The notes below the pieces were generated by a model. The model had not been told where the DNA came from. It did not search any database and was given only the letters and a program-made list of their open reading frames with translations. A program made the position numbers and the translations under genes. This document shows, piece after piece, positions 6,869-46,345 of a stretch of 64,000 bases of DNA. This DNA comes from an uncultured Verrucomicrobiae bacterium. GTDB lineage: Bacteria; Verrucomicrobiota; Verrucomicrobiia; Limisphaerales; Palsa-1400. The first letter of the stretch is position 1. Each line of letters opens with the position of its first letter. The DNA is taken from the NCBI GenBank assembly GCA_963764165.1, contig CAVXRD010000003.1, positions 139,060 through 203,059 on the forward strand, written 5' to 3'.

Positions 6869-7627
6869 TCACGAATTTTTGGCCCGCTTTCCGTTTGCCT
6901 CCCGCATGAGCGCCCATTGCAAATTCAACCAGGGGGTCGCCTCGCCGAGGCTTTGAAAATCCAGCGGCTTGACAATAAAGCAGTCCGCCCCGCGGCGCTT
7001 GCATTCCGCCATCTCGGGTCCCTCGTGCGATGCTGTCAAAATAACAACAGGAATGTGCATGGTGCGCGGGTCGGCCTTGATGCGGCGCAGCACCTCAATG
7101 CCGTCGATCTTTGGCAGATCCAAATCCAGCAGTACAAGGAGCGGTTTGCTGGAAGGCATGCGGCGGGCGAAGCGCCCGGTGTAAAATAAATAATCCAGCG
7201 CATCCTTGCCGTCGCTGACGACCTGGATCGGGTTGGCCATTTTCGCTTTGCGGAATGCGCTGATCGTCAGTTCGGCATCCTCCGTGTTGTCCTCAACCAT
7301 CAGTATATCCACGAACTCGGCTTGGTGCCCATTGCCATGGGAGCCGTTCTTGCGCTTGGGGCCGGCGTGGGGCGCCAGCAGCAAGTCCGCTATCGAGACA
7401 CGCAGTGCTCCAGCGAGCTTTTCGATGCTCTTCAAGGTCACGTTTCTCCCGCCGCCCTCGATTCCTGCGATGTAGGTGCGGTGCAATCCCGCGCGCTCTG
7501 CCAATTCCTCCTGCGACATTCCCAATTTATGCCGCAGAGTCCTGACGGAAGTACCGAATCCCGATATAATTTGCGATTCCAACATTAAAGCTTGGTTGAG
7601 AATCTTAAAAGACCGGCCATTCGACAA
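6869..7627 (-). CDS. XRE-family HTH fused to a C-terminal Rcp1-like receiver domain; true start probably about 15 codons further in
   Basis: MSQEELAERAGLHRTYIAGIEGGGRNVTL is an XRE HTH. DILMVEDN..LLDLDLPKIDG..FIVKP is a receiver domain. Confidence 0.85.
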   Translation of the reverse strand: MSNGRSFKILNQALMLESQIISGFGTSVRTLRHKLGMSQEELAERAGLHRTYIAGIEGGGRNVTLKSIEKLAGALRVSIADLLLAPHAGPKRKNGSHGNGHQAEFVDILMVEDNTEDAELTISAFRKAKMANPIQVVSDGKDALDYLFYTGRFARRMPSSKPLLVLLDLDLPKIDGIEVLRRIKADPRTMHIPVVILTASHEGPEMAECKRRGADCFIVKPLDFQSLGEATPWLNLQWALMREANGKRAKNS

Positions 7628-15650: not shown

Positions 15651-17370
15651 CAATTCTTTGCAGTGCTATTTCGGAAAACTCTTCATTTTTGGCAAAGTTT
15701 TAGGCGGCGAGTTTGGTCAATTTGTCCACGTCCGCTTTGCGGGCGGTCAAGAGCGCAGTAATGGTGGTGCGCCCTTTCTCGGTGACAACATAGCGGTGGG
15801 TGCCGCTGACTTTGGCGATCAAGCCATGCGCTCGCAGGAGCCGCAGTCGGCGTCCAATCCAGCCCATTCTGCGTTTGAGTTCGCGGTCATCGCACCGGCT
15901 GGGAAAATAGGCCTGCCGAATGTCTCGACTGCGAAAGCCGTTGAGGGCGTACTCTCCCTGGCTGACCATTTCCAAAAGGCGTCCGTCCTCCGGGGCCCAA
16001 GGATTGAGGGCGCGGTAGCGCCGCCCCGCCTGCCGCAGGGGCTTGCAGCATTTTTCAACCCATTGGAACAGCGGCACCGTTCCGCTGACGGATCCCAACG
16101 CCTGCAAATAACGTTCATTGGCCCGGTGAGAGATTTCTTTGCGCCGTTTCAGGTCGGCCAGCCCCCGGCGCAATGTCAGCCAGCGTTTGGCCTCCTTGGG
16201 CCGGCCTTCCGGTTTGCGATAAACTTTAAATTCCTCCGGGTGCGTCACCGTCGTTTCGATCCGCAAAACCGAGCCCTGCTTGTCGTAAAATTTGATCGAG
16301 TTGCCGTTAAGACTGTGCTTGACCCGCACGCCCTCCGGCCGCCGTTTGGTGTCGCTGGTGATTTCGCCCTCAAACTGGCCGTACCACCCTGCCCGTGCTG
16401 ATGGGAACGTATCGGCCCAAAAACCTCATCACGTCCGCGCTGGAAAAGGAACTGATGGCATGGTGAACCAGGCTGGGATAAAGCCGGGCCAGGCTCTCGG
16501 GCTCCTTGAAAATGACATCGGTGGCATATTCGGTGTCCGAAGCGCTCCAATAGTATTTGAGGTTCAGCGGCTGGCAAATCGACCGGTGCAGGGGATGAAC
16601 CTCATTGAGCAGCCGGCCCAGCTCCTTGGGCCAGTCAGTTTGCAGTTGCTGGTCCAGCAGGCCTTGAGCGCGCCCCATATCGGCCACCCGCAAAAAGGTG
16701 TTCTCCTTCTTTTGATAGGCAATGCCTGCCTGATCCAACTGCTTTCCCAGCCAATGCCGGCCATTGAGGCAGATATTAATCTGGAAGGGAAACCAGGTTT
16801 GCAGGCGCAGGTGCATGAAGCCAAACTTGGAATGCTCGAAATAGAAATAAAGATGGCTGCACTTGCGCTGCTGAACCTTCACCTCAATGTGTTTGGTTTG
16901 GGGGTTTCCGACGACTTGAAAGGACATGCAGGGTTCCGTGCAATTGAGAATGGCGATCAGTCCCTCGGTGATTTTATCGCGGGCGGCAATCTTGCGCGCC
17001 ACCTCCTCCTTGCTGGTTTGGCTGGAGGGGACGAAAAGAAAAGGCCGCCCGGCTGTTTGTGCCAGGGCCCTGGCTTTGTCTTTGACCGCTTTGGTGGTCC
17101 GTTCGACCAACTGGCTGAAATCCTTGATCAGAATGTGGCAGGCGTTCAAGTAGGCCTCCATCACCTGGGGGCCGTACAACTGGCGCAGCGTCCCGCGCAA
17201 TCGCAGGCGATCAAAGCCCGAAAGAACTCCTAGAATTGAGGAAGCATGTTTGTGTACAAAAGAGTTGGAAGCGCCGTCATGGGTAAGCGGTTTGTTTTGC
17301 ATACATCCAATCTTACCCAGACCGGACGGCGCTTTCCTCTTATTTTTGGTTGCGGCTTTGCCGCGCTGTG
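15651..17370 (-). mobile_element. IS-like element without terminal inverted repeats; boundaries approximate
   Basis: A single transposase-sized gene. GCGGC-TTT-GCCGC hairpin at 17352-17364 near one end. The two ends are not reverse complements. Confidence 0.65.
15700..17302 (-). pseudogene. Putative transposase/Rep-like protein of about 533 aa with a C-terminal winged helix, split by a +1 frameshift at about 16385
   Basis: ORFs 16370..17440 and 15700..16329 join as ..GRVYGQFEGEITSDTKRRPEGVRVKH.. when one base is removed. Motifs GVLSGFDRL, HLRLQTWFP, EYATD, IKFYDKQGSVLRIET, and wHTH-like LRAHGLIAKVSGTHRYVVTEKG. Confidence 0.7.
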
Positions 17371-17519
17371 CCCTTGGGCCTTTGCGACCTCGCATTGGAG
17401 TGTTCCTTCCACCAGGGCTGATTTCAACGACAGGGCGCAAAGAAGCAAAGGCGCAACCAAGAGAAGCTGCAAACGACGGTTTGTGCCGGCTTGCTCACGC
17501 GGGCAAATCGGAATAGCCT

Positions 17520-18248: not shown

Positions 18249-18716
18249 TCAACGATCCTTGATCCGTTTGAGCCAAGTGCGGTCCTCAGCAGAAAGTTCC
18301 GGGAACAGCCTTAAACCGCAGGCGTGAGCGATGGCCCTGCAGCCGCTTGCGGAATCAAAGCTGAGAAACCATTGGCAACCGAAACGGCGAGCAGCGGCAA
18401 TATGCAACATGTCCAGCGTGCCTACGTTCGACCGTGACGCATATCGTCGAAACAAATCTGCGGCCATCACCACCATCTCTTCAAATGTATAACCGCAATC
18501 CACGTACAGCCGCGCTTTCAGATCGGATTCCAGCGCCATCAGGCGATCCCCAGCGCGCCAAAAATTGCACCGGCACTCCGCTATCACAACCGTGCTGACA
18601 ACAAGAGTGGATGGCCCTTTTTCAGCCCAGGCGGCGACGGCGTTACGGTCACGAGTCTGGTAATAAAGAGAGAAGAGCCAGTTTGTGTCCGCAAAGGCTA
18701 TTCTGGTTTGAGGCAT
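18249..18716 (-). CDS. PIN-domain (VapC-like) toxin
   Basis: FADTNWL, VIAE, GTLDMLHIAAA, FLSFD. Confidence 0.85.
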   Translation of the reverse strand: MPQTRIAFADTNWLFSLYYQTRDRNAVAAWAEKGPSTLVVSTVVIAECRCNFWRAGDRLMALESDLKARLYVDCGYTFEEMVVMAADLFRRYASRSNVGTLDMLHIAAARRFGCQWFLSFDSASGCRAIAHACGLRLFPELSAEDRTWLKRIKDR

Positions 18717-18916
18717 AGCTCGTAGGCCTTGGGATCAGCTTCCGGCGCCGGCCGTTTCAACACTTCTCGCCAATCCGGTGGCTGCCTTTGCGACAACTCG
18801 CGCTCCACTAACTCGTTGAGCTTCTCACTCACGTTTCCAAAGGCTTCCTGCAATTGCTTCTTTGTCCGCTTGGGACGGAATGTAATAGTTTCGCGCACAC
18901 CAAAATGGTAAGACAA
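18698..18916 (-). CDS. Small putative antitoxin (RHH/VapB-like)
   Basis: 72-aa ORF overlapping the PIN start; TITFRP beta-strand followed by two helices. Confidence 0.65.
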   Translation of the reverse strand: MSYHFGVRETITFRPKRTKKQLQEAFGNVSEKLNELVERELSQRQPPDWREVLKRPAPEADPKAYELCLKPE

Positions 18917-44009: not shown

Positions 44010-46037
44010 CTAGGGTGCCAGTCTCAGCCGGAAAAATGCCGGACCCTGCGCGGGCACCGTGACTGCATGCTGCGCTCGATTGAGATCAACCGGCGGCGAC
44101 GCGACCAAGGACCAAGGCCCGGTGACGCTGGGGGCGGTTTCCAGCAATGCCCCCATCAGCGGCAACGGCCACGCCACCGTCATCTGGCCACCCGGAGCCG
44201 GAACCAGGGTGAGTTGCGCGGGCGCGCCTGTGACCACCACTCGGGCGGGTTTGGACCACCCGCGCGAATTGGCCGGATTCACCGCGTTGGCGGAGAACGA
44301 CCATGTGCCCGTCGTCAAATTGGAAACCGTCATTGAGTAAGGCGGACTAAACACCGCACCGAGGAGATTCGTGCCCTGCCAAAATTCCACCCACTGGATT
44401 CCTTGCGGGTCGCTGGCGGTCGCGGCCAGGGTCACGGACGCAGGCGCGGTCAGCGTGGTCAAATCCGCCGGGCTCACCAGCACCGACTGTGGCGGCGTGG
44501 CGGCGACGCCGTTCACATCCAGCAGAACCGTCGCCGCGCTGGAGACTGCCTGGCCGTCACTCACCGTAAACTGGAAAGACTCGGAACCGGTGAAGCCGGC
44601 CAGCGGCGTGTAAGACAAATTCGGCGGCGTTCCGGTCAAAACGCCATACCTGGGTTGCGTAACCAACGTGAACTGCAGCGCGTCGTGATCAGCGTCAAAG
44701 CCCGTCAGCGTCAGGTTCATGGGTGTGTTTAGCGTCCCGGCGAAATTTGCGGGCAGCGCGCTCGGCGGATGATTCGTGACCGGCTGCGGCGTGGTGTCAA
44801 AGGAGTAAATCGTCCCGCCCGAGACGCCGGCCCACACCGTGTTGCCATGGGCGGTGATGATGCCTCCCGCGATGACCGCATTCGAAAGGGCGGGTGGCAG
44901 TTGATTGGTCAGCCCGCTGATCCCGGTGTTGAACTGGCTCCAATTCATGCCGTCCGCCGACCGGTATATGCCGCCGGTCCGGGCATAATTCTGGTTCATG
45001 TAAGTAAAAGAAATTCCCGACGCGGTCGTCACCACAACTCCCGGGGCCGGCGTCGCTGGCAGTCCGAAATCCGCCTTGAAATACGTTCCGTCGCCGGGCC
45101 GGTAGCCGATTAATTGAACACCCGCCCAATTCGCCGAACCCGGGAAAACCATGCTGAACTCGGCGTTGTTGCAGACAACATTGCCAAACCGGTCAAAGCC
45201 TGCGGCCCCGGCATTGCCGATCCGCCCCAGCGGATTGAGCGTGGCGGCGTTGGTGAAGTCCGGATCCAGGCTTGTCCATGAAAGCCCATTGTTGGCCGTG
45301 TGCAGAAACCCGCCCGTCTCCGAGCCGACCACTACATCCCCGCCGGGCGCGACGGCAACGCCGAAGATTTTTCCAAAGTAAGTTTCGCCGTTGATCAGCG
45401 GAAAATAATCGGCCGGCACCGAGGCGTCGATGTCGAAGGCCTGATAGCTCCGCCCGCCGTCTGTGCTGCGGTAGACGTAGGAGGCGAACCCCGAAGTCGT
45501 CCACAGCGAGCCATCCGGCGCATTGGCAAAATTGCCGGCATAAGCCGTGTAGGGGTAGGTCTGGCCCGTCACCGCCGCTGGCTGCCACTGGCTGGCATTC
45601 TCGTCCCAATAATAAAACACCGGGATGGCGTTCGGCACCCCGGTATAGGCATAAATGCTGTTGTTGATGACATTAACCGGGCTGCCGGAAATGACCGGGA
45701 CACCCTGCGGGGAAACGCCCACGTTCCATAACGCAAAACCGTTGCTGTTCGCCGCCGACCAACCCGGAAACCCCGTCATCGGCATGGCCGAAAACACGTG
45801 GTCCGTGAGCGCCGCCCGATAAACCCCGTTGAACGTCGTGGCGTAGTAAAGATTCGTGCCATCCGTGGCCAGCCGGGCAAACCCGGCCGCCACGCCCGAA
45901 GTGTTCGTCACCGTCGCCTTGCCCCAGTTCGTCCAAGTGTCCGCCCCCGCGCCAGCCGCATATGCCAGCCAGACGCCCGCCGCCAGCGCCCCTGTCCGCT
46001 GCGCTTTCATCCATCGACCGACAATGCCATTTTTCAT
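44010..46037 (-). CDS. Secreted Asp-box beta-propeller protein with Ig-like domains and a conserved C-terminal domain
   Basis: Signal peptide; Asp-boxes STDGGRSY, TANNGLSW and SADGMNW; GFDADHDALQF..P..G.LTG..YTP..F.G..SF Ig module. Confidence 0.78.
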   Translation of the reverse strand: MKNGIVGRWMKAQRTGALAAGVWLAYAAGAGADTWTNWGKATVTNTSGVAAGFARLATDGTNLYYATTFNGVYRAALTDHVFSAMPMTGFPGWSAANSNGFALWNVGVSPQGVPVISGSPVNVINNSIYAYTGVPNAIPVFYYWDENASQWQPAAVTGQTYPYTAYAGNFANAPDGSLWTTSGFASYVYRSTDGGRSYQAFDIDASVPADYFPLINGETYFGKIFGVAVAPGGDVVVGSETGGFLHTANNGLSWTSLDPDFTNAATLNPLGRIGNAGAAGFDRFGNVVCNNAEFSMVFPGSANWAGVQLIGYRPGDGTYFKADFGLPATPAPGVVVTTASGISFTYMNQNYARTGGIYRSADGMNWSQFNTGISGLTNQLPPALSNAVIAGGIITAHGNTVWAGVSGGTIYSFDTTPQPVTNHPPSALPANFAGTLNTPMNLTLTGFDADHDALQFTLVTQPRYGVLTGTPPNLSYTPLAGFTGSESFQFTVSDGQAVSSAATVLLDVNGVAATPPQSVLVSPADLTTLTAPASVTLAATASDPQGIQWVEFWQGTNLLGAVFSPPYSMTVSNLTTGTWSFSANAVNPANSRGWSKPARVVVTGAPAQLTLVPAPGGQMTVAWPLPLMGALLETAPSVTGPWSLVASPPVDLNRAQHAVTVPAQGPAFFRLRLAP

Positions 46038-46345
46038 TTATTATGCCTTCACCAATGCGCCCGGACTTGCGGCTTAGTTATCCAGCCGACCTTTTGATGG
46101 AAGCCGGTGGATGGCCAGTTAAACCTGTTGAAGCTGCGGACGGCAATACGCCGTGGGACGTATCCTCTCGAATGGGTTCGTCGTTGCGGTGTCCGCCCTC
46201 ACTTTCTGCATTTTGGTTTCGACCTGGGATGGCGGGTGTGAGAAGGTGGCATCAGCAGCGTCGGAAAAAGCGGCTGCTGCAGTTTGCGTGGAAGACTACA
46301 AGATTTGGTAGCTGTAGGCGGCAGCGCAAAGCTGGTAAAAAAGGA

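Follow-up and report, generated by a model that had tools for sequence, protein, structure and literature searches.

A multi-copy insertion sequence-like element of a Verrucomicrobiae bacterium encodes a candidate Rep_trans-like single-tyrosine nickase

We analysed a 64,000-nt stretch of DNA (hereafter the window; positions 139,060 to 203,059 of contig CAVXRD010000003.1, assembly GCA_963764165.1) from an uncultured Verrucomicrobiae bacterium of the Palsa-1400 lineage. On the minus strand of the window lies a broken (frameshifted) copy of an autonomous insertion sequence (IS)-like element of 1.72 kb with a single gene. The element is mobile, is present in multiple copies and is not syntenic, and its nature as an IS-like element with neither a DDE nor an HUH enzyme is well supported. 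On the basis of motifs, predicted topology and weak structural matches we lean, with a little more confidence than doubt, towards a new IS family whose transposase is a Rep_trans-like single-tyrosine nickase acting through a single-strand or rolling-circle pathway. Whatever the fold assignment, the transposase of this IS family is unrelated to the catalogued ones. An earlier reading of the window from its letters alone (the sequence-only reading) had proposed an IS-like, non-DDE, non-HUH element with a Rep_trans-type nickase that moves by rolling-circle or peel-and-paste transposition; the former part holds up, while the latter is the best inference rather than a demonstrated property.

Same-genome copies were judged from cluster listings and relatives. 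The source genome holds at least five copies over two contigs (3.6 Mb and 0.79 Mb): the 90% cluster of the intact protein P0001 comprises P0001, which occurs at three places, the variant P0125, whose upstream read-through differs, and two copies with a frameshift. No second copy was found within the window. The gene is thus multi-copy and not syntenic; a single-copy, syntenic gene would have spoken against the sequence-only reading. Homologue searches returned more than 7,700 proteins, nearly all unnamed and none with a Pfam domain, and a full-library scan sized the family at 6,879 clusters at 50% identity (E <= 0.001). The homologues lie mostly on contigs of 1.7-2.5 kb, the typical signature of a collapsed, assembly-breaking repeat. 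Hosts include Verrucomicrobiota, Thermodesulfobacteriota, Burkholderiales, Rhodococcus and Mycobacterium, with thousands of lineages represented; no family members were found in the phage collection. For one relative that is 50% identical, P0313, the same protein is encoded on at least 24 contigs, and the ten of these that were read have unrelated flanks and base-sharp ends, with some insertions inside genes (a dockerin gene, for example). Further relatives, annotated as 'hypothetical protein' or 'ArsR family transcriptional regulator', reside on megaplasmids of Paraburkholderia, Burkholderia, Caballeronia, Rhodococcus and Mycobacterium; a Mycobacterium riyadhense plasmid has the family at 4 places. 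The generic hallmarks of an insertion sequence are therefore all found here: a mobility gene as the only gene, multiple copies, identical ones among them in varied flanks, defined ends, and both decayed and miniature copies.

The limits of the element were set where DNA similarity to 30+ related loci begins (65-95 nt ahead of the ATG) and ends (41-46 nt past the stop codon), and the junctions of P0125 and of locus L013 corroborate them. At the left end, nearly all related loci share the consensus C[ATG][CT][AT]GC-GCGGC-loop-GCCGC-AACCAAAA, which occurs once in the window (0 expected by chance). The stem of this hairpin is longer in some subfamilies, reading GCGGGC/GCCCGC in the P0313 subfamily (L042-L051) and GCGGCC/GGCCGC in L008. 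Just upstream of GCACAGC, the window copy ceases to match P0125, an identical copy of the source genome, and identical P0313 copies part exactly ahead of CTTAGC-GCGGGC-TTC-GCCCGC; therefore, the whole hairpin is part of the element. A nick in the hairpin loop was considered and rejected, as identical P0313 copies keep the entire hairpin inside the element. In a Paraburkholderia copy with 30% protein identity, the left border still reads CAAGG followed directly by CACAGCG and the hairpin, then AACCAAAC (AACCAAA), and the right end retains GATACTGCAGAGG and CTGCAGAGG. The right-end segment of about 47 nt is reused as the right half of a 138-bp miniature element in L013, where a second left end directly follows the right end of the full element. 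No inverted repeat joins the two ends, and neither terminal inverted repeats (TIRs) nor a fixed target site duplication (TSD) was seen among the copies. The sequence-only reading had likewise described an element without TIRs, and its limits (15651-17370) agree within about 4 nt with those derived here (15655-17370); TIRs and fixed TSDs among the copies would have counted against it. A CTTTGC/GCAAAG pairing inside the right end is, as judged by eye, not conserved among aligned right ends, and the element has no Rfam match. In five loci (L012, L014, L023, L026 and L036) an extra 80-100 nt, partly CACGGATTT repeats, separates the left-end hairpin from the ATG. Two loci of different subfamilies, L014 and L020, have a common hairpin repeat, ACACGCTTTTTCCCAGACT[T/G]CGCTGGGAAAAAGAG..., directly after ...GCACT; this repeat may be another small mobile element that targets this right end.

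A short motif, GC[AG][AG]AG[GA], marks both borders: it directly precedes the left end and forms the last letters of the right end. In 23 loci the left flank finishes in it, and the 7-nt stretches that precede the left end and follow ...GCACT share the consensus G-C-A/G-A/G-A-G-R. Because the two border 7-mers of one locus match no better than those of different loci (4.43 identities within and 4.21 between loci; permutation test, p = 0.14), and because the P0313 flanks show no duplication, we rejected a 7-bp TSD and regard this as a shared border motif.

The miniature in L013 (1807-1944) is a gene-less element of 138 bp that consists of a left end and a right end only and lies directly behind a full element. 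Its junction reads ...GCACTGCAAAGA from the full element, at once CGCAGCGCGGCAAGCCGCAACC..., about 60 nt, and then ...TTTTGCCAAAAATG...AATAGCACTGCAAAGA, so that the insertion point falls exactly after the border motif. This gene-less copy would depend on a protein supplied in trans. Many insertions of the family are located within or next to arrays of the octamer NCGCAAAG, in direct and inverted orientation; at the window copy, the arrays at 17371-17396 and 17432-17460 together form a palindrome resembling repetitive extragenic palindromes (REPs) and bacterial interspersed mosaic elements (BIMEs), and the left flank differs between the window copy and another copy of the same genome. Since the arrays differ between identical copies of one genome and are absent at several P0313 insertions, we read them as preferred REP/BIME-like targets outside the element. 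The alternative that they are the TIRs of a larger element was rejected on the same observations, together with the one-sided array of L048. Inverted arrays adjoin the insertions in L013 (1968-1999), L018, L019, L036, L044 and L048, lying in the right flanks of L018, L019 and L036, in both flanks of L044 and in the left flank of L048. Copies also nest near one another: fragments stand beside full copies in L033 (~1070-1214, a tail-to-tail right end) and in L023 (150-250, the remnant of a right-end/left-end junction).

Database searches with the protein gave little. Single-sequence and profile searches of Pfam, NCBIfam, PHROGs and PDB sequences returned a winged helix only, and neither P0001 nor 57 relatives (30-50% identity) had a Pfam, NCBIfam or PDB sequence match beyond this weak one, which consists of the Pfam families HTH_45 and HVO_A0261_N at residues ~480-520. 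In Foldseek, the C-terminus matched MarR-like winged helices with a probability of 0.9-1.0. RefSeq applies the label 'ArsR family transcriptional regulator' to the family member at L062 4025-5539 (Paraburkholderia phytofirmans pOLGA1); the label probably stems from the C-terminal winged helix alone, as a misannotation that affects the whole family.

AlphaFold2, run with a 118-sequence alignment, modelled the full-length protein with a mean predicted local distance difference test score (pLDDT) of 89.4 and the core (residues 12-406) with a pLDDT of 94.2 and a predicted template modelling score of 0.90. The model core of about 400 aa is built of two tandem S1-H1-S2-S3-S4-S5-H2 units. The first has a strand at 23-38, helices at 40-83, four long antiparallel strands at 114-180 and a helix at 181-192; the second has a strand at 251-265, helices at 268-294, four strands at 314-352 and a helix at 381-403. 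Self-comparison found no internal sequence repeat. As modelled, this topology would be the double repeat, or saddle, of TATA-binding proteins (TBPs), as in Rep_trans initiators. TBPs recurred when the core was compared with the PDB by Foldseek (1mp9, 1ais, 1vok, 1tbp and 8ffz_H; probability 0.25-0.66, E >= 0.065), and the other neighbours were further two-layer sandwiches; no DDE transposase, integrase or HUH enzyme was among the top 50. In the viral library BFVD, the best match was an unnamed protein of 303 aa (E = 1.3e-3, probability 0.90), and others included Inoviridae sp. proteins and TBP-fold viral proteins such as A0A2N9QVX7.

Conservation singles out a small set of residues. The 57-sequence alignment has 14 invariant columns, among them E258, D262, Y339, R347 and E349, and D31 and R32 are likewise invariant. 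After Betaproteobacterial and Actinobacterial plasmid copies (21-30% identity) were added, D31, R32, G114, G161, P172, N180 and N201 were kept, as were E258, K337, Y339, R347 and E349; D262, Y152 and Y154 do not persist in the most distant members. Y339, in a predicted strand (334-341), is the sole tyrosine kept in all members. The searched enzyme classes gave no match. No HxH is conserved, the lone HKH (residues 17-19) not being conserved in alignments A1 and A2; there is no Pfam match to the HUH families Y1_Tnp or Y2_Tnp, and the conserved tyrosine is on a strand rather than on an α-helix. Membership of the DDE class finds no support in Pfam or NCBIfam DDE profiles, in an RNase H-like fold, in TIRs or in a TSD, and profiles for the DEDD transposases of IS110 (DEDD_Tnp_IS110/Transposase_20), for serine recombinases (Resolvase) and for tyrosine recombinases (Phage_integrase) gave no match.

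Much of what the sequence-only reading had said of the protein agrees with these results. Its length of about 533 aa after correction of one frameshift is exact by comparison with intact P0001, its motif positions are exact (DTEYATD at 16517-16537 and the tyrosine of IKFYDK at 16285-16287), LRIET follows them at 16252-16266, and its C-terminal winged helix and absence of an HUH motif are confirmed. It had named an RNase H or HUH fold, or loss of the tyrosine or acidic residues, as observations that would count against it; the AlphaFold models give neither fold, and the tyrosine and acidic residues are invariant, with D31, E258, Y339 and E349 persisting down to 21-26% identity.

The published motifs of Rep_trans proteins are N' (D), I (RxD), II (T/SxY/ExG), III (YxKxxE) and IV (W/LxRxE); their tyrosine lies in a β-sheet, unlike that of HUH enzymes, and a D-D-E triad binds metal (PMC5714925). 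In RepDE the metal ligands are D46, D142 and E214 and the nucleophile is Y191, and a TBP-like arrangement has been ascribed to Rep_trans (PMC13107129). We located the corresponding sites in RepC from pT181 (SFD46AMTIVGNL, RLD142LAFD, RIY191NKK and RVE214IE). In the element protein, GFD31RLRLRGTL, TE258YATD262, IK337FY339DK341 and LR347IE349 are colinear with D46, D142, Y191 and E214 of RepC, and the protein thus has counterparts of four of the five published motifs, with their order preserved. The stretch K337-x-Y339-x-K341 is fully or almost fully invariant, and its tyrosine is predicted to lie on a β-strand, as in motif III; Y339 is the candidate nucleophile. A metal triad is suggested by the order, conservation and predicted strands of D31, E258 (where Rep_trans has Asp) and R347-x-E349. 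The surviving tyrosine and the three surviving acidic residues would match the Rep_trans set one for one, as far as can be judged from sequence. Comparison by hhalign used alignments of RepC only, of 14 mixed sequences (plasmids and inoviruses) and of the inovirus and Firmicutes subsets; its best local paths, all non-significant, pair D31 with D46 (SFD46AMTIVGNL), FQIN with VQIN, and PEGVRVKHSLNGNSIKFYDK with a 20-residue Rep_trans stretch. The colinear motif pattern is found in 298 of 326 family members and 13 of 14 Rep_trans proteins, compared with 1 of 9,780 shuffled sequences and 0 of ~220 unrelated open reading frames (ORFs), though it was built after both families had been seen and is not an independent test.

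Several results weigh against a Rep_trans-like nickase. No clear equivalent of motif II was identified, the stretch aligned to it being PEGVRVKH, and the Arg of motif I and the Glu (+5) of motif III are absent. The significant match to Rep_trans (PF02486) or Phage_CRI (PF05144) envisaged by the sequence-only reading was not obtained with Pfam, hhalign, HMMER or Foldseek. Neither Pfam family matched at E <= 10 (the protein) or E <= 1 (57 relatives); control Rep_trans proteins do match PF02486. Whole-length, segment and subgroup comparisons by hhalign gave non-significant values (E = 0.02-0.7), and with a Rep_trans hidden Markov model (HMM) in HMMER the family sequences scored no better than reversed or shuffled ones. 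Homology with Rep_trans at the sequence level cannot be shown. Foldseek gave no match at E <= 0.001 in PDB or BFVD, RepDE (4CWC/4CIJ) was outside the PDB top 50 even for the cropped core, and the best BFVD matches are unnamed, which leaves their Rep_trans identity unconfirmed. At the DNA level, the left-end hairpin is short and thermodynamically not unusual on its own. The right boundary is ambiguous by ~7 nt, since four loci (L014, L020, L023 and L047) diverge right after ...GCACT/GTAGTA, ~7 nt before the end of the GCAAAG/CAGAG motif. No empty site corresponding to the Paraburkholderia copy was recovered.

The negative comparisons with Rep_trans are what an autonomous IS with an unrelated transposase would also show. 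Such an enzyme would have a new fold, with its likeness to the Rep_trans motifs convergent or coincidental; its acidic residues would perform metal-dependent hydrolysis or transesterification, as in DDE/DEDD enzymes, with no covalent tyrosine link, and Y339 would be structural or DNA-binding. The lack of a significant profile or HMM comparison, the Foldseek results (RepDE included) and a domain about twice the size of the Rep_trans core, with long insertions, favour this explanation. Yet among the residues still conserved at 21% identity there is a single tyrosine along with three acidic residues, ordered as in Rep_trans and placed on equivalent strands, the secondary structure is not RNase H-like, and an identical border motif with no TIR or TSD fits elements defined by the nick sites of a tyrosine nuclease and not DDE elements. 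We therefore consider a new fold unlikely, although it is the rival that we take most seriously.

Two other explanations deny the protein the role of a transposase or change the way in which it acts. It could be a DNA-binding regulator or passenger, in a unit that owes its movement to an unlinked enzyme acting in trans or to recombination between repeats. The RefSeq name of one homologue points that way, TBP-fold and winged-helix domains do bind DNA, and genes for IS110-family transposases lie near two copies (L002 and L064). However, this is the sole gene of the unit and is kept across phyla alongside subfamily-specific ends; its invariant Asp/Glu/Tyr/Glu/Arg/Lys set, found in thousands of lineages, is typical of enzymes; a gene-less miniature retains the ends only; and no second gene consistently co-occurs in the neighbourhoods seen. 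A regulator or passenger is accordingly improbable. Even less probable, in our judgement, is a homing-type selfish gene, whose product would cut REP-like octamer arrays so that homologous repair copies the gene in, with the arrays serving as flanking homology. The many copies inside or beside direct and inverted NCGCAAAG arrays would suit homing, but identical P0313 copies sit in unrelated, array-free sequence, including the dockerin gene, and the base-sharp ends are common to the 138-bp derivative.

For the Rep_trans-like nickase that we favour, the following mechanism can be proposed. The winged helix and the saddle would recognise the left-end hairpin (GCGGC-AAA-GCCGC then AACCAAAA) and the right-end sequence, and D31, E258 and E349 would hold a divalent metal. 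Tyr339, on its β-strand in K-x-Y-x-K, would cut one strand just 3' of GC[AG][AG]AG[GA] at both borders, giving a 5'-phosphotyrosine link and a free 3'-OH. After that, the strand might be excised as a single-stranded circle, in the peel-and-paste manner of IS200/IS605; alternatively, rolling-circle synthesis of the kind known from IS91 or pT181 might start at the left nick and run to the right one. Rejoining would take place 3' of another copy of the border motif, often inside REP-like NCGCAAAG octamer arrays. A nick 3' of the motif would explain why the left flank always ends in the motif and the element itself ends in it, and would also explain the tandem second element in L013 and the attraction of insertions to motif-rich REP-like arrays.

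The closest systems for comparison are the Rep_trans (PF02486) proteins, among which we considered RepC/RepD of the pT181 family, RstA of CTXphi and other inovirus proteins, and the MOBT relaxases NicK (ICEBs1), Orf20 (Tn916) and RelSt3. The element protein resembles them in the order of an N-terminal strand Asp, [DE]-x-A-x-D, [KR]-x-Y-x-K and R-x-E, in the tyrosine on a β-strand, in three acidic candidate metal ligands, in the predicted TBP-like double repeat with an appended helix-turn-helix or winged helix, and in a hairpin beside the presumed nick site. It differs from them in having no detectable sequence homology, a catalytic domain of ~400 rather than ~200 aa and no motif II, and in belonging to a 1.7-kb multi-copy chromosomal element that lacks genes for replication, packaging or conjugation. 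Rep_trans proteins are known from plasmid and phage replication and from the transfer of integrative and conjugative elements (ICEs), not from transposition (PMC5714925, PMC13107129). A second parallel is with Rep-Arvir (DUF7845), archaeal rolling-circle initiators in which a catalytic TBP-like domain is followed by a MarR-like winged helix, as predicted for the element protein (PMC13107129). The relationship of Rep-Arvir to Rep_trans is invisible at the sequence level, and Foldseek finds for it only winged helices in the PDB and, in the viral library, TBP-fold proteins (including A0A2N9QVX7) and Inoviridae proteins (PMC13107129). The element protein shares this weak pattern of TBP-fold and Inoviridae matches. 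Unlike Rep-Arvir, it has no Pfam DUF7845 match, is bacterial, and is carried by IS-like elements rather than by viruses or plasmids.

Among transposable elements, the IS200/IS605 family, which moves by peel and paste through single-stranded DNA with an HUH Y1 TnpA, has no TIRs or TSD, carries subterminal hairpins, gives rise to miniatures and is found with REP-like palindromes; its insertion point lies 3' of a short specific motif, which as a result always flanks the left end directly, and the right end finishes in a related motif. The element shares the lack of TIRs and TSD, the subterminal hairpin, the motif at both borders, the miniature and the REP-like palindromes. In contrast to IS200/IS605, it has no HUH enzyme, encodes 533 rather than ~150 aa with a different fold, and lacks a clear right-end hairpin and TnpB. 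With the HUH Y2 elements IS91/ISCR and Helitrons it has in common ends defined by nick sites, insertion beside a short conserved sequence and no TSD, and by analogy its variable border repeats could mean that initiation or termination takes place at more than one site. Unlike these elements, it has no HUH motif, only one universal tyrosine (Y152 and Y154 are lost in distant members) and no helicase.

To our knowledge, the catalogued IS families all use DDE, DEDD, HUH, serine or tyrosine-recombinase enzymes. The NCBI IS-family models gave no match (ISfinder was outside the scope of this comparison), and text searches of the available literature returned Rep_trans only in plasmids, phages, ICE relaxases and archaeal viruses (Rep-Arvir), with no such IS. 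We would give an even chance to the broader proposal that the element is the founding example of a new, abundant IS superfamily with a TBP-fold, Rep_trans-like single-tyrosine nickase, which has its own miniatures and may spread NCGCAAAG arrays. If so, a further chemical class of prokaryotic transposase would stand beside the DDE, DEDD, HUH, serine and tyrosine-recombinase classes, and transposition would have drawn on rolling-circle initiators on two or more independent occasions, once from the HUH class and once from the structurally unrelated Rep_trans class. The proposal would also name and assign a function to ~6,900 clusters (50% identity) that are now called 'hypothetical' or 'ArsR regulator' and that fragment metagenome assemblies, would point to a candidate enzyme for the mobilisation of one class of REP-like repeats, and would offer for study a compact enzyme that cuts and joins single-stranded DNA in a sequence-specific manner.

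The features of the window copy are collected in Table 1. Intact P0001 (533 aa) is 100% identical to the window copy on either side of the frameshift junction, across which it reads ...STGRVYGQFEGE...; since the two are identical except at the junction, the window copy has one surplus G. The N-terminal ORF likely starts at the ATG at 17302 (MQNKPL...) and stops at the TGA at 16370-16372, and the C-terminal ORF terminates with the TAA at 15700.

Table 1. Coordinates of the element, its gene and its left flank in the window
Feature	Position	Strand	Remarks
Whole mobile element	15655..17370	-	~1,716 bp; one gene; 5' leader of 68 nt; ~45 nt past the stop codon
Transposase gene, N-terminal part	16370..17302	-	Residues 1-306, followed by 4 codons out of frame and a stop
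Transposase gene, C-terminal part	15700..16383	-	Residues 307-533 and a stop, in the other frame
Frame-breaking 1-nt insertion (extra G)	16384..16385	-	By comparison with intact P0001; AGGGTG[G]TACGGC
Left end	17344..17370	-	CACAGC-GCGGC-AAA-GCCGC-AACCAAAA; window sequence CACAGCGCGGCAAAGCCGCAACCAAAA
Left-end hairpin, 5 bp	17352-17364	-	GCGGC-AAA-GCCGC
Right end	15655..15702	-	From the stop codon through ...TTTGCCAAAAATG...ATAGCACTGCAAAG(A); ends at 15656/15655
F30-D31-R32, strand S1	17207..17215	-	Proposed counterpart of motif N' (D46 of RepC/RepDE)
D-T-E258-Y-A-T-D262, strand S1'	16517..16537	-	Proposed counterpart of motif I (R-L-D142-L-A-F-D)
K337-F-Y339-D-K341, strand S4'	16279..16293	-	Proposed catalytic Tyr, counterpart of R-I-Y191-N-K
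R347-I-E349, strand S5'	16255..16263	-	Proposed counterpart of motif IV (R212-V-E214)
C-terminal helical and winged-helix DNA-binding region	15703..15993	-	Residues ~437-533
Octamer-like units of the left flank, x3	17371..17396	-	AATGCGAGG TCGCAAAG GCCCAAGG G; end in the motif before the left end
Inverted octamer array	17432..17460	+	AGGGCGCAAAGAAGCAAAGGCGCAACCAA; repeat I1: 29 nt, 79% complementary

Another frameshifted copy of the same genome, P0124, differs from the window copy in its +1 insertion; the two distinct insertions are 3 nt apart in one surface loop (window 16381-16390). The frameshifted products end in ...TGRVVRPV* (window) and ...TGRVYRPV* (P0124), and both copies leave the same C-terminal ORF of 209 aa (P0122). 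Such paired +1 insertions could reflect a mutational hot spot, sequencing error or regulated frameshifting. Opposite the transposase gene, on the plus strand, are antisense ORFs of 313 and 247 aa (window 16292-17233 and 15658-16401), which are probably artefacts of GC-rich sequence.

The right-end neighbour of the element is a gene for a TonB-dependent receptor, which starts 64 nt past the element; on the opposite side lie a PIN-toxin pair and a radical-SAM gene. In this pair, ~0.9 kb from the element, a gene for a PIN-domain toxin (155 aa) overlaps an upstream ORF of 72 aa (window 18249-18916, minus strand), and the two likely form a toxin-antitoxin pair. Elsewhere in the window, at 45962-56828 on the plus strand, two very large proteins (2,230 and 1,365 aa) with PA14, Ig, fibronectin-III and laminin-G domains are encoded, and these are probably secreted or located at the cell surface.

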